Positions 8,785-58,668 of a DNA stretch of 64,000 nt are shown piece after piece; position 1 is the first letter of the stretch, and every line of letters begins with the position of its first letter. The DNA lies in NCBI GenBank assembly GCA_030590945.1, contig JAUVBY010000001.1:167-64166 (forward strand). Direction: 5' to 3'. The position numbers and the translations under genes were made by a program. The DNA comes from Gammaproteobacteria bacterium (GTDB lineage: Bacteria > Pseudomonadota > Gammaproteobacteria > Arenicellales > Poriferihabitantaceae). The notes beneath the pieces were generated by a model. The model ran no database searches. It was not told the DNA's origin and saw nothing but the letters and a program-made list of their open reading frames with translations.

Positions 8785-11244
8785 TCAACCGCGCATTTTT
8801 TCCGCTTTAGGATCGTACATCGCGCTGAGGCTTGCTTTGGCAGGGATACGTTTGCCGGCGACATCGATCTCAAACTGACTGGCATCGATGGCTTTTTTAT
8901 CGATGATGTCTTCACTATAGATATAACCCAGGCCTACCGAGCCCCCCAGGGTATGGCCGTAGTTGCCGGAGGTTAAATGCCCGACCAGTTTTCCGTTCTG
9001 TAAAATCGGTTCATGATGATAAAGCATCGCTTCGGGGTCCTGTAGCAGAAACTGAACCAGGCGTTTTTTCATCCAGCTTTTGCTTTCTTTCTGGGCGGCG
9101 ATGGCCTCGTGGCCGATAAAACCGCCAGCTTTATTCATATCGCAGACGAATCCCAGCCCCGCTTCTAAAGGTGTATCTTCATTGGCGACGTCATGCCCGT
9201 AATGTACGAATTTCTTTTCCATTCGACAGGAATCCAGCGCATGCAGGCCGGCGGGTTTTAGGCCGAATGACTCACCGAATTGCCACAAATAGTCAAAGGC
9301 ATGACGCGCCTGATCAACTGGAATATATAACTCCCATCCCAGTTCTCCAACAAAGGAAACGCGAAACGCACGACCGATGGCCGCGCCGACTTCCACATCC
9401 TGCCAGCTGCCGAATGGGAACGCCTCACTGGATAAATCAAGTTTTAAAACTTCGCTTAGTAATTTACGGCTGTGAGGCCCCATCACGCCAAACACCGCCC
9501 AGCTGTTGGTAATGTCGCTTACGAAACAATGCGCTTCATCAGGAATATGTTGCTGTAACCAATGCAAATCTTTGTGCGTCGTGGCCGTTCCACTAACTAC
9601 CCAGAATTGTGTCGGGGAAATTCGCGTCACTGTCAAGTCCGCCTCAATGCCGCCGTTTTCATTTAACCAGTGGGTGTACACTATTTTCCCCGGTGGTACG
9701 TCGATGTTCGCACTGCTGATACGTTGCAGACAGGCGCAGGCGTCGCGCCCTTCCACCTGGTATTTGGAAAAACCACTTTGATCAAACAAAACCACATTTT
9801 CGCGTGCCGCCCGGTGTTCATCAGCTGAATACTCAAACCAGTTCTGCTTGCCAAAGCTGTATTTGTAAACGGGCTCTATGCCTTCGGGGGCAAACCAGTT
9901 GGGCCGCTCCCAGCCCGCGGTTTCGCCAAAACAGGCATTTAGCGATTCCAGGCGTTCATGTATAGGAGAGTGGCGCACGTTGCGGGCGCTTTCATACTGA
10001 CGGAAAGGATAGTGGCGCGCATACAGCAGGCCCAGGGTCTCGCTGACCCGGTCCTGCAGGTAATGCTGTGTATTTTGCACAGGAAACATGCGGCGAATAT
10101 CGTTTCCCCACAAATCCATGGTGGCCTGACCGTGTTCCATCCATTCAGCCAACGCCAATCCCAGCCCGCCGGAGGTTTGAATGCCAACAGAATTCAGGCC
10201 GCAGGCTACGTAGAAATTCTTCAGTTCGGGGGCCTCGCCCACATGAAACTGATCGTCCGGTGTGAAGCTTTCCGGGCCACAAAAAAAGGTGCGCCAGCCC
10301 GCTTCCTGCAGCATTGGAACGCGCTGCATCGCATCTTCCAGTATGGGCATGAGTTGTTCTTCCATGTGGCCTTCGAGTTCATCGAAACAAAAATCTTCGG
10401 GAATGCCGTTTTGCCCCCAGGGAATCGCTTTTTGCTCGAAAGCGCCGACCATAATACTACCCGCATCTTCGCGATAGTAGGCGCATTTATCATGGTCTCG
10501 CAATACCGGCAGGGTCTCTGGTAGCCCCGGTAGCTTTTCGGTTACCGCATAATAGTGTTCGCAGGCATGCAGTGGGACCTTGACACCCGCCATTTGCCCT
10601 ATTTTTCGTCCCCACAGGCCACCACAGTTAACGACGAAATCAGCCTGAATATCGCCCTGGTCAGTCTCTACACCCGTGACTTTGCCCGCCTTGGTCTGGA
10701 TTCCCGTGACGTTGATACCCTCAATACATTTGGCGCCGCGCAGGCGCGCGCCTTTCATAAATGCCATCGTGGTGTCTATGGGGCTGGCGGTGCCGTCCTG
10801 TGCGACCCAGCTGGCGCCCAGCAAATCCTCCGTGCTTAGATAGGGGTAGCGTTCTTTGGCTTCCTGCGGGCTGATAATATCAACCTGTGTCACACCAAAG
10901 GCGTTGTTCATGGCCGCGACGCGCTTTAATTCTTCAAATCGATCCTGAGAATGCGCAATACTGAGCGATCCGACCTGCCTGAATCCGGTGGATTGGCCTG
11001 TTTCCTTTTCCAGTTCCGGCAACAGAGACATGGAATACTCACACAGGCGGGCATGGGTTTCATTGGCACGCATGGTGCCGACCAGGCCGGCAGCGTGCCA
11101 GGTGGTGCCGCAGCTAAATTGCTTACGCTCAAGCAGAACCACATCCTGCCAGCCCTGTTTTGCCAGATGATAAGCGACGCTGGCACCGATAACGCCACCG
11201 CCGATGATTACGGCCGAAGCCCGGGAAGGAAGGCTGGAAGTCAT
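8785..11244 (-). CDS. FAD-dependent oxidoreductase fused to a GcvT-like folate-binding domain (dimethylglycine/sarcosine dehydrogenase family)
   Basis: 819 aa. The N-terminal dinucleotide fold is VIIGGGVIGASVAYHLA and the flavinylation-type motif is TTWHAAG. The C-terminal half is aminomethyltransferase-like (FVGELGWELY). Confidence 0.85.
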   Translation of the reverse strand: MTSSLPSRASAVIIGGGVIGASVAYHLAKQGWQDVVLLERKQFSCGTTWHAAGLVGTMRANETHARLCEYSMSLLPELEKETGQSTGFRQVGSLSIAHSQDRFEELKRVAAMNNAFGVTQVDIISPQEAKERYPYLSTEDLLGASWVAQDGTASPIDTTMAFMKGARLRGAKCIEGINVTGIQTKAGKVTGVETDQGDIQADFVVNCGGLWGRKIGQMAGVKVPLHACEHYYAVTEKLPGLPETLPVLRDHDKCAYYREDAGSIMVGAFEQKAIPWGQNGIPEDFCFDELEGHMEEQLMPILEDAMQRVPMLQEAGWRTFFCGPESFTPDDQFHVGEAPELKNFYVACGLNSVGIQTSGGLGLALAEWMEHGQATMDLWGNDIRRMFPVQNTQHYLQDRVSETLGLLYARHYPFRQYESARNVRHSPIHERLESLNACFGETAGWERPNWFAPEGIEPVYKYSFGKQNWFEYSADEHRAARENVVLFDQSGFSKYQVEGRDACACLQRISSANIDVPPGKIVYTHWLNENGGIEADLTVTRISPTQFWVVSGTATTHKDLHWLQQHIPDEAHCFVSDITNSWAVFGVMGPHSRKLLSEVLKLDLSSEAFPFGSWQDVEVGAAIGRAFRVSFVGELGWELYIPVDQARHAFDYLWQFGESFGLKPAGLHALDSCRMEKKFVHYGHDVANEDTPLEAGLGFVCDMNKAGGFIGHEAIAAQKESKSWMKKRLVQFLLQDPEAMLYHHEPILQNGKLVGHLTSGNYGHTLGGSVGLGYIYSEDIIDKKAIDASQFEIDVAGKRIPAKASLSAMYDPKAEKMRG

Positions 11245-27314: not shown

Positions 27315-29177
27315 TTAGGCTGATGCCCGGGCGGGTACTGCAGCGTTAAAGTTCGCTTTGTCTGCGATTAACTTATGTACCGCCTCGACTGCCAGTGGTG
27401 CATTCTCGCCGTATCCATCTGCTTTAATGACCTCTGCAAATTCTTCGGTAACCGGTGCTCCCCCAACAATCACAGGAAACTTCGAACCCACTTTCTTAAA
27501 CAGGTCAACCGTCTTTTGCATCGATGGCATCGAAGTAGTCAGCAAGGCAGAAAGTCCCACTACATCCGGGTTGATCTCGTTGGCACGCTCCAGGATTTCT
27601 TCCGGTTTTTTATTGACGCCCAGATCGATAACTTCGTAACCTGCACCTTCGAGCATCATGCCCACCAGGTTTTTTCCGATGTCGTGGACATCGCCCTGAA
27701 CCGTAGCAAGCATGATAGTGCCTTTTACCGGTTCTCCGGTTTCGGTCAAAATCGGGCGAACCACTTCCAACCCTGCTTTCATTGCGCGTGCGGACATCAG
27801 CATTTCAGGCACAAAGATCGTGCCATCGGCAAAATCATCGCCTATTTCATCCATGGCAGCGATCAAGGCATCGTTGAGGATGGTATGAACGTTAATGTCT
27901 TTTTCGAGGGCTTCTTTGACCAATGCCTCTGTATCGACATCATCTGCGTCCATGACGGCGTCGAAGATATCATCCAGCATTAACTCTTCCGGAGTGTCCG
28001 GGCTGTCGCTGACCGTTACGGGCTTAGCGGCCTTGGTCTTGGTGGCTTTTTTGCCGGTTTCTCCGCGAGCCTCGGGGGTGCCAGCGTTTGGTTGGCCCGC
28101 CCAGGGGCGATCACCGGCCCGAAAATTCTTGCAGGCCTCGATGGCAATGCGCACGTTTTGTGCGGGTGTAACGGCTGAAAGTGAACATAGGTAAAGTGCT
28201 CCTTTGCCGACCGTTTCAATCGCTTCCATGTATTCATGAATACGCATGCGAATTTCTTTTTCTGTCCCGTTTTGAAAAACATTATTGTCGACCCCCAGGA
28301 CGATCGGTATATTGTGTTCCCTGCCGTAGTCGATAACGGGCTGTACTCCCAGTTTATAAAGATCAGGATCTTGCACCTTAAGATAGTCTGGCGTTGCGCG
28401 GCGTTTCTGCGCCCAGAATTCTGGTAGATCAGGCGCATAGGAATCCCCCCACCAATTGTCACAAAAGGCCGGTCGTGTCACTTGCTTTTGCAATCGCTCG
28501 AGGGGTTGCAAGGCAAATTCCTCGAGCATGCCCTGAGTGATGAATGGTAGGGAAGCGACGGCATCAGAGCCTTCGACCGCAACAATATCCGGAAACTCTT
28601 TGATCAATGCATTCATGTAAGGTGCGATGACCTCGTCAACCAGAAAATTCATCAGCTTATGTACGAAACCGGGGTTTTGTTTGATTTGCACAATGAGGTT
28701 TTCAAAGGTCATGACGTGCGAAGCCAGCGTGAAAGGCGCGCAGAAACAGGGGGCTGGTATCATGCCGGCCTGGGCTTTCATTTCGTGCATGATCTCAAAC
28801 ACCATTGGCATGCGCCCTGAGGAATATGGGTCGGGTGCTTTTAATGTCGCGATGTCGGCTTCACAGGCGACTAGAGGTGAAACATTTTCAATGGCAGGCG
28901 CCATGTCTTCGAAGGTGACAAAGCTACAGCCCAGGGCCTGTGCTTCAACATTGTATACGTCCCAGACAAATGAAGGGCTATCAAAATCGAAGCGCTCACA
29001 TACCTCAAGCGTACCGCGTACGAATTTTTTCGCGTCGGTATAAAACTGGTCCCCCGGAATGCCGCTTTCGCGCATTGCGAATTCGTGCATTTGAGCAATG
29101 AACGGAACCTCTGTCGTGCCGCTGGTCATGGCGTCACCTAAGAGTTTGATGTTTTTAGAGAAATCGAATTTTGCCAC
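27315..29177 (-). CDS. Fusion of a URO-D-like (MtaA/CmuA-family) methyltransferase domain and a cobalamin-binding (corrinoid) domain
   Basis: 620 aa. About 370 aa at the N-terminus form a URO-D-like fold, followed by a Lys/Thr/Ala/Pro-rich linker and a B12-binding cap. A Rossmann-like B12 domain follows, with DxHxxG (GDVHDIGKN), SxL (GLSALLTT) and GG (VIVGGAPV). Confidence 0.8.
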   Translation of the reverse strand: MAKFDFSKNIKLLGDAMTSGTTEVPFIAQMHEFAMRESGIPGDQFYTDAKKFVRGTLEVCERFDFDSPSFVWDVYNVEAQALGCSFVTFEDMAPAIENVSPLVACEADIATLKAPDPYSSGRMPMVFEIMHEMKAQAGMIPAPCFCAPFTLASHVMTFENLIVQIKQNPGFVHKLMNFLVDEVIAPYMNALIKEFPDIVAVEGSDAVASLPFITQGMLEEFALQPLERLQKQVTRPAFCDNWWGDSYAPDLPEFWAQKRRATPDYLKVQDPDLYKLGVQPVIDYGREHNIPIVLGVDNNVFQNGTEKEIRMRIHEYMEAIETVGKGALYLCSLSAVTPAQNVRIAIEACKNFRAGDRPWAGQPNAGTPEARGETGKKATKTKAAKPVTVSDSPDTPEELMLDDIFDAVMDADDVDTEALVKEALEKDINVHTILNDALIAAMDEIGDDFADGTIFVPEMLMSARAMKAGLEVVRPILTETGEPVKGTIMLATVQGDVHDIGKNLVGMMLEGAGYEVIDLGVNKKPEEILERANEINPDVVGLSALLTTSMPSMQKTVDLFKKVGSKFPVIVGGAPVTEEFAEVIKADGYGENAPLAVEAVHKLIADKANFNAAVPARASA

Positions 29178-30839: not shown

Positions 30840-30865
30840 TCAGCGCTATCGGTGTTTAACCTGAA

Positions 30866-31096
30866 TTCCTCAGTTGGACAGGGTATAGGGCGCTTGTGTG
30901 GTGGCGTATGGCAAGGCGTACCTGCGCGGAATGGTCATTCCCTTTCAAGCAGTTACAACGCGGCCATACGCCACCACAGGAGTGCAATATACTCTGTAGC
31001 GCCTTAAACCCATAGAGTGAAAAGGATGAAATACAATTCCCTAATGAATTCATGTGCTTATTCATATCTCGTAGCGGTCAACTGAGGATTTTAGGT
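30866..31096 (+). repeat. Copy A of a roughly 230-bp structured repeat (unclassified; ncRNA or non-autonomous mobile element)
   Basis: It is about 90% identical to 57431..57660 over the first roughly 150 nt and over the last roughly 25 nt. Its termini are complementary (CCTCAGTTG / CAACTGAGG). It carries a perfect 16-bp long-range helix (30897-30912 with 30963-30978) and nested hairpins. The strand shown is arbitrary. Confidence 0.7.
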
Positions 31097-33544
31097 TTAA
31101 GCATCGGTTCTTGAGCGAATCGATTCCGGGTCCCAGACCGGGTTGTTTATTACCAGGGCGCGGTATTGTTTGCCCAGTAACTCGACGAATAATTGCGTTC
31201 CGGCTTGCGCATATTTTGCTGCGACATACGCAAAACCGAGGCTTTTTCGGGTGGTATGGCCATAACCACCTGAGGTTGTGACGCCCACGGGGTTTCCATC
31301 GGCAAACACCGGTTCACCCCCGGCGATATCGCAGTCACTGGAATCCACTTCCAGGTAAACTATTTGTTCAGCAATACTATTTTCGAGCACGTTTAACGTA
31401 GCCTCTTTACCAGTAAAGTGATCTTTTTTATCTGCAAAAAATCGCATCAGGTCAGCTTCCACCATGGTGATTTCGTTGGTTAGTTCACTGCCCCAGCCTT
31501 TGTAGGCTTTCTCCATGCGCATCGAGTTGACCGCGTAGGTACCAAAGTTGGTGATATTAAACTCCTGTCCGGCAGCCCACAGCGCATCGTAAACATGCAG
31601 CAGATCCGCCATTGGTACGTGTAGTTCCCAACCCAGTTCTCCGACATAATTGACCCGCAGGGCGCGTACCTGGCAGCCTGCTACGGTTATTTCCTTGCCC
31701 GTCAGCCAACGAAAATTCAGGTTATCCAGCCCGGCACCCGTCAATTTACTGAGTACATTGCGTGAGTGTGGTCCCGCCAGTACCAGCACACCATAATCGT
31801 CGCTTACATTTTTAAGCTGTACGTCTTCACCATCCAGAATGCCTTGTTTAAGTGTATCGAAATCCCGGTCTTCAGCGACTGCGCCGGACAGGACGTAATA
31901 TTGTTCTTCATTTAAGCGAGTGATGGTCGATTCGCCGCTGATACGGCCGGTTGGAGATAGATAGTGTGTCAAACAGATCCCACCATTGCGCGACGATATA
32001 GTGTTAGCGCTTATCCGGTTGAGCAGCGACCGCGCATCTTTGCCGGCCACATCATACTTGGCAAAGCTAGACAGATCCAGCAGGCCAACTCGCTCCCGCA
32101 CCGCCTTACATTCATCGCCTATGACGTCAAAGATGTTGTTGTGCCGAAAGCCTGCCTGTTCCTGCCTGCCATCAGGGGAAAACCATTTAGGCCGCTCCCA
32201 GCCATTGGCCTCAGTGTAGACGCATCCCTGTTCCAACAGGCGATCATATAGAGGTGTGATTCTTGCCTTACGTGCGGCAGGGCGTTCCTCGCCGGGCAGA
32301 TGTAAGGCATACATGTGTTCGTAGTCCTGATGTGATCTGCTTTTGGTAAAGCAGCCGGGTGCAAATCGGCCAAAGCGTCGCGGGTCGACCCCCGCCATGT
32401 TGATTTCGGCATCACCGTAAATCATCCATTGCGCGAGATACTTACCGGAGCCCGCGCCCGCCGCAATGCCAATCGAAGCACCATTGCAATGCCAGAAATT
32501 GCGTAATCCGGCAGCCGGACCCAGACAGGGGTTCCCGTCTGGCGTATGTGGAATGGCACCGCAGACCACGCGTTTGATGCTCAGATCTTCCCACATGGGT
32601 ATGCGTTGCATGACGCGTTCGATAAAGGGCAGTAGATTATCGAAATCAGGGTTGAACAGTTCGTTTTCAGATTTCCACTCCGGCCAGCCATCCCGGTGAG
32701 TCCAGCATTCTTCTGAGTTGGCGGTTTCGTATATCCCGATCAGGGCAGATTTTTGTTCCTGACGATAATACGCGGAGGGGTAGGGATCTCGCATGACCGG
32801 CATTTCTTCATCGCATTCCAGAAATTCGGGCACAGATTCTGTGACGACGTAAGTATGTTTCATATTGGTGATGGGGGAATCCGTACCCACCATCTGGCTG
32901 ACCTGTCGAGCGTAGCATCCCGCGGCATTCACCACCATCTCGCAATGAATATTTCCCTCTTCTGTAACGATCTCCCAGTCACCGGATTTTTTCTGATTGA
33001 TATCAATGACCCGGTTTCCGGTAATGATTTTGGCACCTAAGTTCCTTGCTCCTATAGCCATCGCCTGGGTAATACCCGCTGGATCAACGTGCCCGTCATT
33101 GATCGTCCAGGCACCCGCAATCACCCCGTCGGTATTTACATGCGGGTTAAGCTGGCGTATTTTGGCCGGGTCAATGATCTCGCAGTCAAACCCAATCAGT
33201 TTGCCCACACTGGCAACGCGGTGAAACCAGTCTACTTCGGATTGCTTAAGCGCAAAACGGATACCCCCGCAGCCATGCCAGCTGACATACTGACCGGTTA
33301 GTTCCTCGAGTTTGGGGTATAGTTGGATGCCGTGGTCGTGTATCTTCGCCATATTGTAATCAGCGATAAAACTGGGGCATTGCCCGGCCGCATGCCAGGT
33401 TGAGCCCGATGTGAGTTCACCTTTTTCGATCAACAGAATATCTGTCCAGCCCTCCAGTGCGAGATGGTATAACAGGCTAACGCCCATGACGCCACCGCCT
33501 ACGATGACTACTTTGGCCTGCGAAGGGAGGGCAGTATCACTCAT
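31097..33544 (-). CDS. FAD-dependent oxidoreductase + GcvT-like domain (dimethylglycine dehydrogenase-like), second paralogue
   Basis: 815 aa with VIVGGGVMGVSLLYHLA, STWHAAG, and a C-terminal aminomethyltransferase-like domain (YVGELGWELHVP). Its ATG overlaps the MttB-like gene stop (ATGA). Confidence 0.85.
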   Translation of the reverse strand: MSDTALPSQAKVVIVGGGVMGVSLLYHLALEGWTDILLIEKGELTSGSTWHAAGQCPSFIADYNMAKIHDHGIQLYPKLEELTGQYVSWHGCGGIRFALKQSEVDWFHRVASVGKLIGFDCEIIDPAKIRQLNPHVNTDGVIAGAWTINDGHVDPAGITQAMAIGARNLGAKIITGNRVIDINQKKSGDWEIVTEEGNIHCEMVVNAAGCYARQVSQMVGTDSPITNMKHTYVVTESVPEFLECDEEMPVMRDPYPSAYYRQEQKSALIGIYETANSEECWTHRDGWPEWKSENELFNPDFDNLLPFIERVMQRIPMWEDLSIKRVVCGAIPHTPDGNPCLGPAAGLRNFWHCNGASIGIAAGAGSGKYLAQWMIYGDAEINMAGVDPRRFGRFAPGCFTKSRSHQDYEHMYALHLPGEERPAARKARITPLYDRLLEQGCVYTEANGWERPKWFSPDGRQEQAGFRHNNIFDVIGDECKAVRERVGLLDLSSFAKYDVAGKDARSLLNRISANTISSRNGGICLTHYLSPTGRISGESTITRLNEEQYYVLSGAVAEDRDFDTLKQGILDGEDVQLKNVSDDYGVLVLAGPHSRNVLSKLTGAGLDNLNFRWLTGKEITVAGCQVRALRVNYVGELGWELHVPMADLLHVYDALWAAGQEFNITNFGTYAVNSMRMEKAYKGWGSELTNEITMVEADLMRFFADKKDHFTGKEATLNVLENSIAEQIVYLEVDSSDCDIAGGEPVFADGNPVGVTTSGGYGHTTRKSLGFAYVAAKYAQAGTQLFVELLGKQYRALVINNPVWDPESIRSRTDA

Positions 33545-35112
33545 GGTTTCATTTGTTCGCGGGGCAGGCGAATATCAAAGTTGGCGCGAAGGCGGGCATC
33601 GAGTTTTTCGCTGATATGTTGCGGAAAATGGCTGGCCAGAATTTCCCGGGTTTTTACTCTGGCTGGCACGTTTATCGGTTGAGAACCCATTTCCTTCCAA
33701 AGGTCTGGCGGAAATCGATTACCCACCTCCGGGTAAACGTAATCTTTTAACATTCTTGATAAGGTGGATTCATGCGAGAGAAAATGCTCGGGACCATTGA
33801 GGCAAACATCTTCGATAGTTTTGAGCGCCAGCGTGTCGTCGTCAATTTCAATGCCACGTACGCTGCGATTAATGGCGCCAAGCATATCATTGTCCAGCGT
33901 GCAACCTTCAAAGCTGAAGCCCAGCAGGCTCGCTTGCATGCCTGCCGCTTCATAGACCATATTGGCACCGCTGTGCCCGGCCAGAGCGAGGGTATAACCC
34001 TTCTCAAAGCCTGACTGCGCATCTGGAATTTTGGAATCGGCCATGCCGGCTGCGATGCCGGTCGGTAAATCATAATAACGTCCCATCTGGCCACAGGCCG
34101 CCATTAATATAGCCTGCTCTCCGCTACCACCACTCATGGCGCCGGTTCTCAAATCAGAGACGAATGGCCAGGGGCCGGCAACACAAGGGTGGCCGGGGAC
34201 CATGCTATTTACATAGGCCAGTGCGCCCAGCACTTCGGCCATTTCCTGAACAACTGCACCGGCGAGTGTGGCCGGACTGGTTGCCCCGGCCTGCCCGGCA
34301 GCAAGTAACAGTACGGGCATGCCACCATGCACTACAACCTCTAATACACGACAGGCATCTTCAGCAAATCGCAGGGGGGGGACCACAAAGCAGGACGACA
34401 TGCTAACAAACGGTCGCTCGCGCCATTTTTTTTCACTGCCCGCGATTTCGTGTAACATTTTGAGTGTTTGCTGTGCGTGTTCGGGTTCGACATAACTTAC
34501 CCCGACATGCTTCGTGGTACCTGATACCGAAGCGTAGGTAGTATTGAGATCCATCGCAGCGGGTTGCACAATATCTCTTGCCACCAGAGGGCGTTGAAAA
34601 AAGTGAATGTGATCCAGGCTGTCAACTAACCGTGCCGCGTCGTACAAATCCTGAATGGTCGAATCACGATAGGCACTCGCGTTTGGATAATCAGCATGGG
34701 TTTTCCAGTCATCGACAATATGCACGGCCGCGCCTGCGGTTCCAAAGTAGACTTTATTTCCACTCAAATGCAGGTCGTGTTTTTCTTCCTGGCCGTATAA
34801 GGTAATATTTCTTGCGGCAATATCGAGTGTTTTTAAAATTAGATCGCGCGGAAAGAGTAAACGGCCATCATCTGTATATTTTCCACCGGCCGCGGTCACT
34901 GTTTTAATACACGAGGGAATTACGCGGGAAAAGCCGACGTTCTCCAGCAAATCCAGAATGGCTTCATGGATGCGCTGCATATCTGCTTCAGTCAGAGGAT
35001 GAAAACGCCCCCCCGACTGGCCCGGATGAACGGCTTTATCTTCTTCGGCCAGTGGTGCTGCACGCAATGCACGACGGGCGACCCTACCGCCTGCTCTTTT
35101 AGATGCCATCAA
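33541..35112 (-). CDS. MttB-superfamily methyltransferase, non-pyrrolysine type (quaternary amine:corrinoid methyltransferase candidate)
   Basis: 523 aa with an uninterrupted frame and no in-frame TAG. The Arg-rich N-terminus is followed by ..PLTEADMQRIHEAILDLLENVGF.., with TIM-barrel-like MttB family resemblance throughout (recall). Confidence 0.75.
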   Translation of the reverse strand: MMASKRAGGRVARRALRAAPLAEEDKAVHPGQSGGRFHPLTEADMQRIHEAILDLLENVGFSRVIPSCIKTVTAAGGKYTDDGRLLFPRDLILKTLDIAARNITLYGQEEKHDLHLSGNKVYFGTAGAAVHIVDDWKTHADYPNASAYRDSTIQDLYDAARLVDSLDHIHFFQRPLVARDIVQPAAMDLNTTYASVSGTTKHVGVSYVEPEHAQQTLKMLHEIAGSEKKWRERPFVSMSSCFVVPPLRFAEDACRVLEVVVHGGMPVLLLAAGQAGATSPATLAGAVVQEMAEVLGALAYVNSMVPGHPCVAGPWPFVSDLRTGAMSGGSGEQAILMAACGQMGRYYDLPTGIAAGMADSKIPDAQSGFEKGYTLALAGHSGANMVYEAAGMQASLLGFSFEGCTLDNDMLGAINRSVRGIEIDDDTLALKTIEDVCLNGPEHFLSHESTLSRMLKDYVYPEVGNRFPPDLWKEMGSQPINVPARVKTREILASHFPQHISEKLDARLRANFDIRLPREQMKP

Positions 35113-37380: not shown

Positions 37381-37391
37381 AACCGCATGAA

Positions 37392-37512
37392 CCTCCCCCT
37401 TTAATAAAGGGGGATAGAGGGGGATTTGCGCGAAGTTGGTAATCTGTATTCAATTTTATTAATTAGATAAACCTGCAAATCTCCCCCAACCCCTCTTTGT
37501 TAAAGAGGGGAG
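37392..37512 (-). mobile_element. MITE-like element X (inverted orientation relative to 53714..53831)
   Basis: Its reverse complement shares both roughly 37-bp termini with element Y, with 1-2 mismatches each (CTCCCCTCTTTAACAAAGAGGGGTTGGGGGAGATTTG ... CAAATCCCCCTCTATCCCCCTTTATTAAAGGGGGAGG). The cores are unrelated. Each terminus contains a hairpin. The element sits 11 nt upstream of the betA ATG. Confidence 0.75.
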
Positions 37513-37559
37513 CTTAACAGCTAGTTCATGATTCAAGAGGTAACCCGCTGCGACAGTCA

Positions 37560-52909: not shown

Positions 52910-53726
52910 TACCTGTGGCTGTAACATTACAGATGGCAATGCGCACCTGGTAAAGCCGGGTGGTAAGTTGTCTTTGACCGCGTCGGGCAATGAAGCCGTA
53001 TCAGTGTTGCGTAGCTTGCTTCATGAAAACGATCATGCCGCCGCGCATAACCGCAGCCATTTTGACGAACATGGTGTACTGGCAATCAACCTGATGTCTT
53101 CGCCCGGAGCCGGGAAAACAGCCCTGCTGGAAGCGACGATACAAGCTCTGGGTGACCGTTATCGTTTTGCGGTGGTGGAAGGTGATCTTGAAACCGAGAA
53201 TGATGCTGAGCGTATACGGCGCCATGGAATTCCAGCGGTACAAATCACCACTGGCAGTGCCTGTCATCTGGATGCTCACATGGTGCATGATGCCCTGCAT
53301 GAACTGAATCTCGATGATATCGATGTATTATTTATAGAGAACGTGGGTAATCTGGTATGCCCGGCCAGTTTCGATCTGGGCCAACACTTAAATGTGACCT
53401 TATTGTCCGTGCCGGAAGGCGATGACAAGCCCGCCAAGTACCCGGTAATATTTCGCGTAGCGGATCTGGTGCTGCTGACCAAGGCCGACCTGTTGCCTGT
53501 ACTGGACGATTTCAGCCCCGAGAAAGCCGAACAAAATCTGCGTAACCTGGCTTCTGAGGCGCCTTTGTATACGGTGACCGTTAAATCAGTCCTCGCGCTT
53601 GAAAGCTGGTTGAACTGGCTGAAGGCTGAAGTTAAAGCTCAACGGGCGCGCGTTGCGAAAGGGGAGACATCGCAACCGGCGATCCAGCCGGAAGGTGCGG
53701 CATTGCATGAAAGCTCCCCTCTTTAA
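52902..53726 (+). CDS. hypB: Hydrogenase nickel-incorporation GTPase HypB
   Basis: 274 aa. The N-terminus is MCDTCGC, the P-loop is SSPGAGKT, and ENVGNLVCP is present. The last four codons and the stop lie inside MITE-like element Y. Confidence 0.92.
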   Translation: MCDTCGCNITDGNAHLVKPGGKLSLTASGNEAVSVLRSLLHENDHAAAHNRSHFDEHGVLAINLMSSPGAGKTALLEATIQALGDRYRFAVVEGDLETENDAERIRRHGIPAVQITTGSACHLDAHMVHDALHELNLDDIDVLFIENVGNLVCPASFDLGQHLNVTLLSVPEGDDKPAKYPVIFRVADLVLLTKADLLPVLDDFSPEKAEQNLRNLASEAPLYTVTVKSVLALESWLNWLKAEVKAQRARVAKGETSQPAIQPEGAALHESSPL

Positions 53727-53831
53727 CAAAGAAGGGTTGGGGGAGATTTGGGTGTTGCAAGCAGTTTTGGAATATCAATACCTTGTCTTCCGCTCAAATC
53801 CCCCTCTATCCCCCTTTAATAAAGGGGGAGG
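53714..53831 (+). mobile_element. MITE-like element Y (same family as 37392..37512)
   Basis: Both roughly 37-bp hairpin-containing termini match the reverse complement of element X. It spans the hypB 3' end and the hypB-hypD spacer. Confidence 0.75.
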
Positions 53832-53852
53832 TAATTCTGGAGCATTAAACCC

Positions 53853-57419: not shown

Positions 57420-57430
57420 ATGATCCTAAT

Positions 57431-57660
57431 TTCCCCAGTTGGACAGGGTATAGTGTGCTTCTGTGGTGGTGCAGGGCAAGGCGTAACTGCGCGGAATGGT
57501 CATTCCCTTTCAAGCCGTTACAACGTGGCCATACGCCAGCACAGGGGTGCAATATACCCTGTAGCGCCTTTAACCCATACAGTGAAAAGAAAAAACACAC
57601 CCTTTTTAATTGATTCATATGCTTATCCATCTTTCATAGCGGTCAACTGAGGATTTTAGG
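57431..57660 (+). repeat. Copy B of the roughly 230-bp structured repeat, located inside the hyp operon
   Basis: It is homologous to 30866..31096 and fills almost the whole hypF-hypE spacer. Its conserved 3' tail TAGCGGTCAACTGAGGATTTTAGG supplies the only SD-like GAGGA (57649-57653), 10 nt before the hypE ATG. Confidence 0.7.
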
Positions 57661-57663
57661 ATT

Positions 57664-58668
57664 ATGCGAGACAAATATATATCTCTGGCACATGGTAACG
57701 GTGGCATCTATATGCGTGAGCTCATTGAGCAGCTTTTCGCGCGTTACCTGGGCAATCCGGATCTCGATGTTCAGGCAGATGCCGCACATTTGCAGTTAAG
57801 CTCCAGCGATATCCTGTTCACTACCGACGGGTTCACCGTGCAGCCGCTGGAGTTCCCTGGCGGTGATATTGGATCATTAGCAGTGCATGGCACCACCAAT
57901 GATCTGGCGGTTTCGGGGGCTAAGCCCGTGTATCTGAGCCTGAATGCGTTTATCGAAGAGGGTCTGGAGATCTCGGTGCTTGAGCGTATTATTCAGAGCC
58001 TGGCGAGAGCCGCAAAGCAGGCAGGTGTCGTAGTCGCAGCGGGTGATACTAAGGTGCTGCCACGCGGTGAAGGTGGCGGACTGTATCTTGCGACCACGGG
58101 CATTGGTATACGCCAGAACCCGTACCCGCTGGGGCTGGACCAGATTCAGGCCGGGGATAAGATGCTGGTCAGCGGTTCGGTCGGTGATCACGGTATTGCG
58201 GTGATGCTGGCGCGCGAGCAATTTGGTCTGCGTGGTGATTTACAATCCGATTCGGCCAGCGTACTGCCCTTTACAGAGTGCCTTCTGGACCTGCCCGGCT
58301 TGCATTTTATGCGTGATCCGACTCGAGGTGGTCTGGCGACGGTTTGCCACGAGTTGAATCGTGCTACCGGCCTGGGAATCCGACTAAAACAGGATGACAT
58401 ACCGGTTAATGAGCCCGTGCAGTCGGTCTGTGATATGTTGGGATATGATCCGCTCTATCTGGCCTGTGAAGGGCGCGTAGTTGCGGTGCTTGCCGCTGCG
58501 GATGCCGATGAGGCGCTGCAACGCTGGGCGGAGTTACCCGGCGGAGAGTCAGCTTCGATATTTGCTGAGTTCGGTAATGATCATGACTCGGTCTTACTGG
58601 AAACCCATTTCGGGGGGGAGAGAATTCTGGAAGAACTTGAAGACGATCCCCTGCCACGCATTTGCTAG
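57664..58668 (+). CDS. hypE: Hydrogenase maturation protein HypE
   Basis: 334 aa with an AIR-synthase-like fold, ending in the conserved ..PRIC. Confidence 0.92.
   Translation: MRDKYISLAHGNGGIYMRELIEQLFARYLGNPDLDVQADAAHLQLSSSDILFTTDGFTVQPLEFPGGDIGSLAVHGTTNDLAVSGAKPVYLSLNAFIEEGLEISVLERIIQSLARAAKQAGVVVAAGDTKVLPRGEGGGLYLATTGIGIRQNPYPLGLDQIQAGDKMLVSGSVGDHGIAVMLAREQFGLRGDLQSDSASVLPFTECLLDLPGLHFMRDPTRGGLATVCHELNRATGLGIRLKQDDIPVNEPVQSVCDMLGYDPLYLACEGRVVAVLAAADADEALQRWAELPGGESASIFAEFGNDHDSVLLETHFGGERILEELEDDPLPRIC

Follow-up and report, generated by a model that had tools for sequence, protein, structure and literature searches.

A 236-bp repeat of a gammaproteobacterial contig is very probably an IS1380-mobilised MITE with a conserved, strand-specific fold

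The 64,000-nucleotide stretch analysed here (the window; contig JAUVBY010000001.1 of assembly GCA_030590945.1, from a gammaproteobacterium of the Arenicellales) contains two copies of a 236-bp repeat, copy A at 30860-31095 between a MocR-like and a DMGDH-like gene, and copy B at 57425-57660 between hypF and hypE. Sequence comparison identifies the repeat as a MITE (miniature inverted-repeat transposable element), on the strength of its terminal repeats, its target-site duplications, an empty site and ends held in common with transposase-bearing insertion sequences (IS). We regard it as very probable that this MITE is mobilised by a transposase of the IS1380 family (ISEcp1-like). A first-pass annotation had described the repeat as either a noncoding RNA family or a mobile element, to be reclassified as ordinary on a match to IS ends or to a MITE with target-site duplications. 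Such a match was found, which places the repeat in an ordinary kind of element; the mobile half of the alternative held, the noncoding RNA half being a tentative possibility. Features by which a MITE is recognised are present in the sequence: a length of 236 bp, far below 600 bp, no transposase gene, terminal inverted repeats, target-site duplications, an autonomous partner, copies dispersed in unrelated contexts, and filled as well as empty sites.

Copies A and B lie in the same orientation and are 84-86% identical (blastn, 86% over 230 nt, E = 2.5e-74), confirming the recurrence that had been annotated; no third copy was found within the 64-kb window. Identity is distributed as first described: the hairpin is 90% identical, the AT-rich segment 57% and the 3′ tail (last 24 nt) 100%. 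The limits originally given (30866-31096 and 57431-57660) had to be corrected, their left ends being 6 nt short. In aligned relatives conservation continues 6 nt to the left of that start, and short direct repeats occur in the flanks. The pairing noted between the termini is present but reaches further outward, forming a terminal inverted repeat of 17-20 bp, which sets the limits of the two copies at the positions given above.

Both copies carry this terminal inverted repeat (CCTARAWTCCTCAGTTG). A search with CCTARAATCCTCAGTTGGAC returned exactly four sites in the window, at 30860-30879 (+), 31076-31095 (-), 57425-57444 (+) and 57641-57660 (-), for a chance expectation of 0. The flanks hold 5-bp direct repeats, TTTAA/TTTAA for copy A (5/5 positions) and ATGAT/ATTAT for copy B (4/5). 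A metagenome scan with the right-end pattern YCAACTGAGGAWTTTAGG yielded at least 120 loci, and the element-family counts reported here rest on the loci listed from public contigs (L numbers). Tolerant searching of all listed loci for terminal repeats recovered 78 inverted pairs, 76 of them with readable flanks. The flanking 5-mers of these 76 elements match at 5/5 positions in 36 cases and at 4/5 in 27 (63/76 together), compared with 1/76 at 4/5 or better for the next-outer 5-mers used as a control, which match at only 0-2 positions in 74/76. The target consensus is W-T-N-A-W, with T at position 2 in 125/126 and A at position 4 in 123/126. The check for target-site duplications proposed at first pass was thus positive, both in the window and across the family.

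Relatives provided filled/empty comparisons for the two sites. Where HypE homologues are 87-91% identical to the window protein (L137, L133), the hypF-hypE gap is 3 nt. The closest of these, L137 (HypE 91% identical), reads ...GGGTTAA-ATTAT-GCAGGAC..., with a single ATTAT and no element; its junction equals the window sequence minus the 236-bp element and one ATTAT pentamer. At the site of copy A, 0-6 nt separate the convergent MocR-like and DMGDH-like genes in L139 and L140, versus 257 nt in the window, a spacing that corresponds to 16 + 5 + 236 nt.

The same ends bound transposase-bearing elements, namely those of L021 and L037 (1679 bp), L087 (1526 bp), L108 (1869 bp) and L142. Four of the 78 inverted pairs lie 1.5-1.9 kb apart, and each partner element encloses a single open reading frame (ORF) of 473-574 aa. 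The L021, L087 and L108 proteins find their best match in NCBIfam NF033539, 'IS1380 family transposase' (6e-42 to 7e-61), and all three score above the cut-off for Pfam PF13701; the L087 protein also passes the curated equivalog cut-off of NF033539 (180 bits) with 206. The IS of L021 encodes a 513-aa transposase and lies between perfect ATTAT duplicates; at the right end it matches both window copies in 20/20 positions. IS1380 family members are described in ISfinder as 1.5-2 kb long, with one ORF, ends starting CC and a 4-5-bp duplication, and the partner elements fit this description (1526-1869 bp, one ORF, CCTAGATTC ends, 5-bp AT-rich duplications). The left inverted repeat (IRL) of ISEcp1 is CCTAGATTCTACGT, and ISEcp1 yields 5-bp AT-rich direct repeats (PMC6061673). 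The partner ends start CCTAGATTC, as does this IRL, and the left end of L021 and L142 (CCTAGATTCCTCAG) shares its first 9 nt with it.

Relatives of the partner transposase number in the hundreds, chiefly on contigs of 1.7-2.5 kb; the named hosts are Sedimenticolaceae, Thiotrichaceae and Leucothrix, and one relative from a Sedimenticolaceae metagenome-assembled genome (MAG) carries the same ends. A more distant IS relative lies at L141 1440-3126 (transposase 67% identical), with ends CCTATTTTAATCAGTT... and ...TAACTGATGATTTTAGG. Within its right end lies TAACTGA, a heptamer described from the genomes of Beggiatoa and cyanobacteria as an abundant direct repeat. Outside their ends, MITE and IS are unlike: only the terminal 18-30 nt are common to both, on which ground a deletion remnant of the IS was rejected as source of the MITE interior. 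The untranslated ends of the partner IS measure 10-124 nt, leaving no room for the hairpin module described below.

Some observations weigh against the assignment to IS1380 or limit its reach. The L021 and L108 transposases score 144-145 bits, under the equivalog cut-off (180) of NF033539. Neither a transposase gene nor a further terminal repeat was found within the 64-kb window, so that a partner IS in this genome is putative. The empty-site relatives of copy A are only 80% identical in the MocR-like protein, which restricts the comparison to spacing; reconstruction of a base-by-base empty site was dropped because the relatives are too diverged, spacing alone being informative.

The known behaviour of ISEcp1 suggests how the element would move. 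Encoding no transposase of its own, the MITE would be mobilised in trans by an IS1380-family DDE transposase recognising the 17-20-bp terminal inverted repeats. Insertion would occur at an AT-rich, near-palindromic WTNAW through a 5-nt staggered cut, duplicating the pentamer; both the mobilisation in trans and the staggered cut are modelled on ISEcp1. Copy A would have landed in this manner on the stop codon of the DMGDH-like gene, and copy B between the hypF stop and the hypE start. Coordinates of the features of both copies are collected in Table 1.

Table 1. Features of the two copies of the MITE (positions in the window)
Feature	Copy	Position	Strand	Remarks
Left target-site duplication TTTAA	A	30855..30859	.	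Same as 31096-31100; family consensus WTNAW
Left terminal inverted repeat CCTGAATTCCTCAGTTGGAC	A	30860..30879	+	2 mismatches to the terminal repeat consensus, chance expectation 0; pairs with 31076-31095
Long hairpin	A	30878..30997	+	5′ arm 30878-30912, 3′ arm 30963-30997; inverted repeat in the repeat listing
Hairpin apex	A	30913-30962	+	Includes the GGAAT/ATTCC hairpin
Conserved apex motifs	A	GGCAAGGCG 30910-30918, GTTACAACG 30952-30960	+	
GTAGCG motif, then small hairpin (family consensus TCACC-loop-GGTGA)	A	30996..31022	+	(Near-)invariant across subfamilies; coordinates hand-counted from the alignment
AT-rich variable segment	A	31023..31071	+	57% identity between A and B; length kept across the family, sequence not
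Right terminal inverted repeat (GGTCAACTGAGGATTTTAGG on the + strand)	A	31076..31095	-	TAGCGG directly before; 20/20 identical to the right end of the L021 IS
Right target-site duplication TTTAA	A	31096..31100	.	Holds the stop codon of the DMGDH-like gene
Left target-site duplication ATGAT (one position mutated)	B	57420..57424	.	Directly after the hypF stop codon 57417-57419
Whole MITE	B	57425..57660	+	Left terminal repeat 57425-57444, arms 57443-57477 / 57528-57562, right terminal repeat 57641-57660; covariance model score 153 bits
Right target-site duplication ATTAT	B	57661..57665	.	Overlaps the hypE start codon 57664-57666

Insertion sites coincide with the ends of genes. The right duplication of copy A contains the TAA stop (31097-31099, minus strand) of the DMGDH-like gene 31097-33544; that of copy B overlaps the hypE ATG, and its left counterpart directly follows the hypF stop. 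A stop (TAA, TGA) or start (ATG) codon is frequently part of the target pentamer, so that surviving insertions fall exactly at gene boundaries, the codon being restored by the duplication. Elements at the listed loci very often lie 0-20 nt from ORF ends. With both neighbours called, 0/21 elements occupy divergent-gene spacers and 3 occupy convergent ones. The right end faces a gene 3′ end in 24/32 cases versus 11/24 for the left end, a marginal polarity.

Two further details concern the surroundings of copy B. Its right repeat puts GAGGA 10 nt upstream of the hypE ATG (window 57649-57666), possibly as a substitute Shine-Dalgarno sequence for hypE after hypF and hypE were split; given the symmetry of the terminal repeats, each copy has GAGGA pointing outward at its two ends. 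The mutation in the left duplication (ATGAT) gives rise to an ATG, and from it a frame of 76 codons runs through the element up to the TGA of CAACTGA (57420-57650).

Related elements were found by their interior as well as by their ends. No blast match was obtained in 5,426 E. coli genomes or in PLSDB plasmids. Scanning one genome per species for the exact apex 22-mer detected 12 contigs from 4 MAGs, whose labels are Thiotrichaceae or 'Proteobacteria bacterium'. One MAG accounts for six of these contigs, and 7/12 matches lie within ~130 nt of a contig end, which is the behaviour of repeats that break assemblies. Full-length matches are 73-93% identical, in hosts of 40-52% G+C. The superfamily, window copies included, comprises ~45 elements of 223-252 bp, most of 234-237 bp, at more than 40 distinct loci among the matches listed.

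The stems of the superfamily differ completely between subfamilies, with architecture and length kept. Also kept are the motifs GGCAAGGCG, (G)TTACAACG and GTAGCG, the TCACC-loop-GGTGA hairpin, AGCGGTCAACTGAGGA and the internal-loop motif ACAACG. Expanded cores with 25-90 extra nt and an added hairpin occur in L068 (367-550), L069 (3211-3530) and L014 (4094-4437). In L068 and L069 the point of insertion is precisely the conserved internal loop GGC^AAGGCG; the 5′ arm of L014 contains further hairpins as well.

Other MITE families have the same ends and 5-bp duplications with unrelated interiors, showing that the ends suffice for movement. They measure 96 bp (L015/L022), 109/141 bp (L041-L130), 175 bp (L024/L061) and 250 bp (L028/L060/L096/L101/L118/L124). 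One same-end family holds one or two REP-like hairpins, GTAGGTGCGAAT..ATTCGCACCTAC.

What superfamily elements share is a hairpin of ~135 nt in the 5′ 60% of the element. In the consensus fold, pairing of the two terminal repeats forms a stem, out of which the hairpin directly arises. The predicted RNA minimum free energy (MFE) of the repeat is -103.4 kcal/mol (z = -9.0), and 0/200 shuffles fold equally well. A covariation check, as proposed at first pass and here made with double changes and shuffles on the family alignment, revealed extensive compensatory change. RNAalifold predicted 59 pairs from 19 sequences, 30 of them with compensatory double changes, and compensatory changes affect 26/33 pairs of the two main helices. 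In the alignment 94.7% of cells pair versus 34-45% with partners slid by 1-3 columns, and shuffles reached the observed values in 0/500 trials, a statistic of a kind inflated by the shared descent of MITE copies. A covariance model built from one subfamily detects the other at 60-100 bits.

Most helices of the first-pass annotation were recovered. The perfect 16-bp helix 30897-30912/30963-30978 and the GGAAT-GGTC-ATTCC hairpin are present, and the 8-bp helix has one mismatch per copy, at different positions, its family consensus GTAACTGC/GCAGTTAC being fully paired. The 'second hairpin' did not survive, being weaker than the continuous helix 30878-30912/30963-30997: only 72.8% of its cells pair across the family, compared with 94.7% in the long helix, and A30981:T30993 is unpaired in 10/19 sequences. 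The compensatory change claimed for that pair becomes, within the long helix, two wobble-compatible single changes.

The fold is specific to one strand. The covariance model gives ~150 bits on the sense strand versus ~45 bits on the antisense strand, and the plus-strand MFE lies below that of the minus strand in 42/43 elements, by 18 kcal/mol on average. Covarying helices contain G-U pairs and A-C oppositions at 109:10, which indicates that one strand only folds, and G-U is kept across subfamilies at alignment columns 33:124 and 18:239 (16/19). The A-C-rich 'pairs' gained by folding the minus strand involve only invariant loop columns and show no covariation. The favoured strand is the one read from the GTTGGAC end. 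This asymmetry argues against a neutral palindrome, template-switch correction and a cruciform, all of which are strand-symmetric, and is compatible with RNA or with folded single-stranded DNA.

At somewhat less than an even chance, the hairpin module acts as RNA when the favoured strand is transcribed; such an RNA might form a compact, stable or processed structure and influence what becomes of transcripts that run across the element. It is a more tentative proposal that the ~135-nt core is an undescribed functional RNA riding an IS1380-mobilised MITE, with its GGCAAGGCG and ACAACG loops, expansion site and G-U pairs as hallmarks. Equally tentatively, the core would be a new class of structured noncoding RNA for which the MITE is a vehicle, expressed from its own promoter or one borne by the terminal repeat, and acting in trans or on neighbouring transcripts. 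Consistent with a noncoding RNA, covariation and conserved internal loops (with GTAGCG besides the two motifs just named) persist despite wholly different stems, G-U exceeds A-C, the plus strand is the more stable and length is held tightly at 234-237 bp. The extra hairpins inserted exactly at the GGC^AAGGCG loop resemble expansion segments of functional RNAs. In addition, the interior is unlike the parent IS and absent from other same-end MITEs, indicating that it is not needed for mobilisation as such. An inward-facing, -10-like TAAAAT can be read from the sequence in the terminal repeat, just upstream of the hairpin base; this hexamer is found at both ends and so cannot account for strand specificity.

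Several results count against an RNA role. Rfam returned no match for the element at gathering thresholds in a search of the whole window, and just two chance-level matches at E≤10 for the element itself; the Rfam check suggested at first pass thus places it in no curated family. Consensus scans found neither a sigma-70 promoter nor an intrinsic terminator in either copy. Between co-directional ORFs the elements show no sense bias (7 sense versus 11 antisense, in a crude, ORF-based analysis of orientation), and orientation was discarded as a pointer to RNA function. Nor does any conserved genomic neighbourhood among the listed loci point to a target.

A role of the fold as single-stranded DNA in transposition is rather unlikely, and slightly less likely still in its specific form, with one folded strand joining the ends or offering the transposase or a host factor a site to bind. 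It would agree with the way folding juxtaposes the terminal repeats, the hairpin rising from their stem, and with the lack of orientation bias relative to host transcription, as expected of a transcription-independent process. The strict length could reflect a geometric constraint, and G-T is the best-tolerated mismatch in DNA hairpins. However, the same ends serve the IS and other MITE families (96-250 bp), which lack the module and still show duplications. Cruciform extrusion, moreover, folds both strands and predicts no G-T over A-C asymmetry, and the known substrates of DDE transposases of the IS4/IS1380/piggyBac type are double-stranded ends.

That the fold has no present function is likewise somewhat unlikely. 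Specific versions, a quasi-palindrome kept by template-switch correction or a hairpin inherited from successful master copies, we rate a little lower. Many MITEs are long imperfect palindromes without known function, and the inflation of shuffle-based statistics by shared descent also speaks for such an origin. Template-switch correction, however, is strand-symmetric and yields Watson-Crick pairs, leaving unexplained the G-U at 33:124 and 18:239 and the overall excess over A-C; and subfamilies with unrelated stems nonetheless retain architecture, loops and length.

The remaining alternatives are very improbable. A palindromic element derived from REP/RAYT or IS200/IS605 (PATE), moved as single-stranded DNA by an HUH transposase, would suit the strand-specific hairpin and the GTAG-containing motif (GTAGCG) adjoining it, but was rejected: HUH elements have neither terminal inverted repeats nor 5-bp duplications, both of which are present here, and the ends are those of a DDE (IS1380-family) partner. 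A small minus-strand protein is just as improbable. Many copies keep an open minus-strand frame of 60-78 codons, such as the 69-aa ORF 30856-31065 and its counterpart in copy B, but the C/A-rich minus strand is naturally stop-poor, in-frame stops interrupt L050, L052, L079, L004 and L005, no start codon is conserved, and the peptides are unrelated between subfamilies except where nucleotides are invariant. Substitutions track base pairing rather than codons, and ORFs inside the element have no Pfam match. Peptide coding was rejected for either strand, in agreement with the first-pass view that a peptide is unlikely.

Other features of the window were noted. Rfam PYLIS_3 (pyrrolysine insertion sequence of mttB) matches 33945-34044 (-) with 58 bits versus a gathering score of 38. 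The match lies inside an MttB-family ORF (33541-35112, -) with no in-frame stop and probably reflects conservation of the coding sequence in a non-pyrrolysine MttB homologue, not a recoding signal. The neighbours of this gene, a DMGDH-like oxidase, a URO-D/B12-binding fusion (27315-29177) and a MocR-type regulator, suggest a quaternary-amine demethylation cluster. Two paralogous DMGDH/sarcosine-oxidase-like FAD + GCV_T proteins, encoded at 8785-11244 (-) and 31097-33544 (-), are 34% identical over their full length and account for a 37-nt direct repeat (9879-9915 / 32167-32203). A second, unrelated repeat occurs at 37391-37515 and 53711-53832, mutually inverted. It has two G+C-rich palindromic modules (CCCCCTTTAATAAAGGGGG... 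and CCCCTCTTTGTTAAAGAGGGG) that are 95-98% identical, with a diverged spacer of ~45 nt, and resembles REP/BIME elements.

Recognition of the MITE explains two odd intergenic inserts in the window and why related MAG assemblies break there. The CCTARAWTCCTCAGTTG ends together with the WTNAW duplication provide an annotation signature for masking or labelling. With WTNAW as the target, insertions fall precisely on stop and start codons, which the duplication repairs. The stem sequences of this short element family have turned over completely, yet its complex single-strand fold has been retained. If that fold acts at the RNA level, the family would be a clear example of structured RNA being spread by a mobile element; if it acts at the DNA level, something new would be learned about the handling of short substrates by IS1380-type enzymes. 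Should the functional-RNA reading be true, marine sulfur-oxidising Gammaproteobacteria would have been seeded with dozens of regulatory or processing RNA copies at gene boundaries.

Among the closest known systems, ISEcp1 and the IS1380 family, of which ISEcp1 has been studied most, represent the parent type. The partner elements resemble them in the kind of ends, in length (1.5-1.9 kb), in having one ORF and in 5-bp AT-rich duplications. The window element differs in its 236 bp, in lacking a transposase and in having nothing in common inside the terminal 18-30 nt. The partner transposases, for their part, are distant from the curated IS1380 equivalog (2/3 under the cut-off), and the hosts are uncultured marine sulfur-oxidising Gammaproteobacteria, not the Enterobacterales of ISEcp1. 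In the literature on MITEs and IS1380 we found no described MITE family tied to an IS1380 (ISEcp1-like) transposase.

Correia elements of Neisseria and the ERIC/IRU elements of Enterobacteria are similarly short, non-autonomous and flanked by terminal inverted repeats, form long hairpins when transcribed, and occupy intergenic sites, adjoining the ends of genes and within operons. Once transcribed, these hairpins undergo processing and alter mRNA stability. The window element shares no sequence similarity with them and is unmatched in the 5,426 ERIC-bearing E. coli genomes. It differs from Correia in its duplication, 5-bp WTNAW rather than TA, and from both in its parent IS family and in a hairpin that covers only the 5′ 60% of the element, is strand-specific and has conserved internal loops. 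Membership in either group was rejected on the absence of matches in E. coli genomes and plasmids and on the 5-bp WTNAW duplication.

Nezha elements, cyanobacterial MITEs, were recognised by ends shared with an IS (ISNpu3), direct repeats, filled and empty sites and a predicted fold that is stable (PMC3184786), and the present repeat was identified by the same reasoning. Nezha elements are 130-170 bp long, with another host and sequence, and we found no covariation-supported core reported for them; identity with Nezha, as with MaeMITE, was rejected on size and host. MITEs of Candidatus Thiomargarita nelsonii (hupL, dsrA-intron) are abundant, hairpin-forming and assembly-breaking, one of them lying near hydrogenase genes, and come from the same or a neighbouring host clade (large sulfur bacteria, Thiotrichaceae); they carry either a 19-bp inverted repeat together with a 10-bp direct repeat or TATAG ends, and no parent IS was found for them (PMC4853749). 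Identity with these was rejected as well, the window terminal repeats being unmatched in the supplementary sequences of that study.

The duplication of a short AT palindrome at insertion also recalls piggyBac, TTAA there and W-T-N-A-W (often TTNAA) here, with 5 bp duplicated instead of 4 and with bacterial hosts. PiggyBac transposases are eukaryotic relatives of IS1380 transposases. As a kind of element, then, the repeat is known from bacterial MITEs such as Correia, ERIC and Nezha; this particular family was not found described, and covariation backs its internal fold more strongly than is common among elements of this kind.

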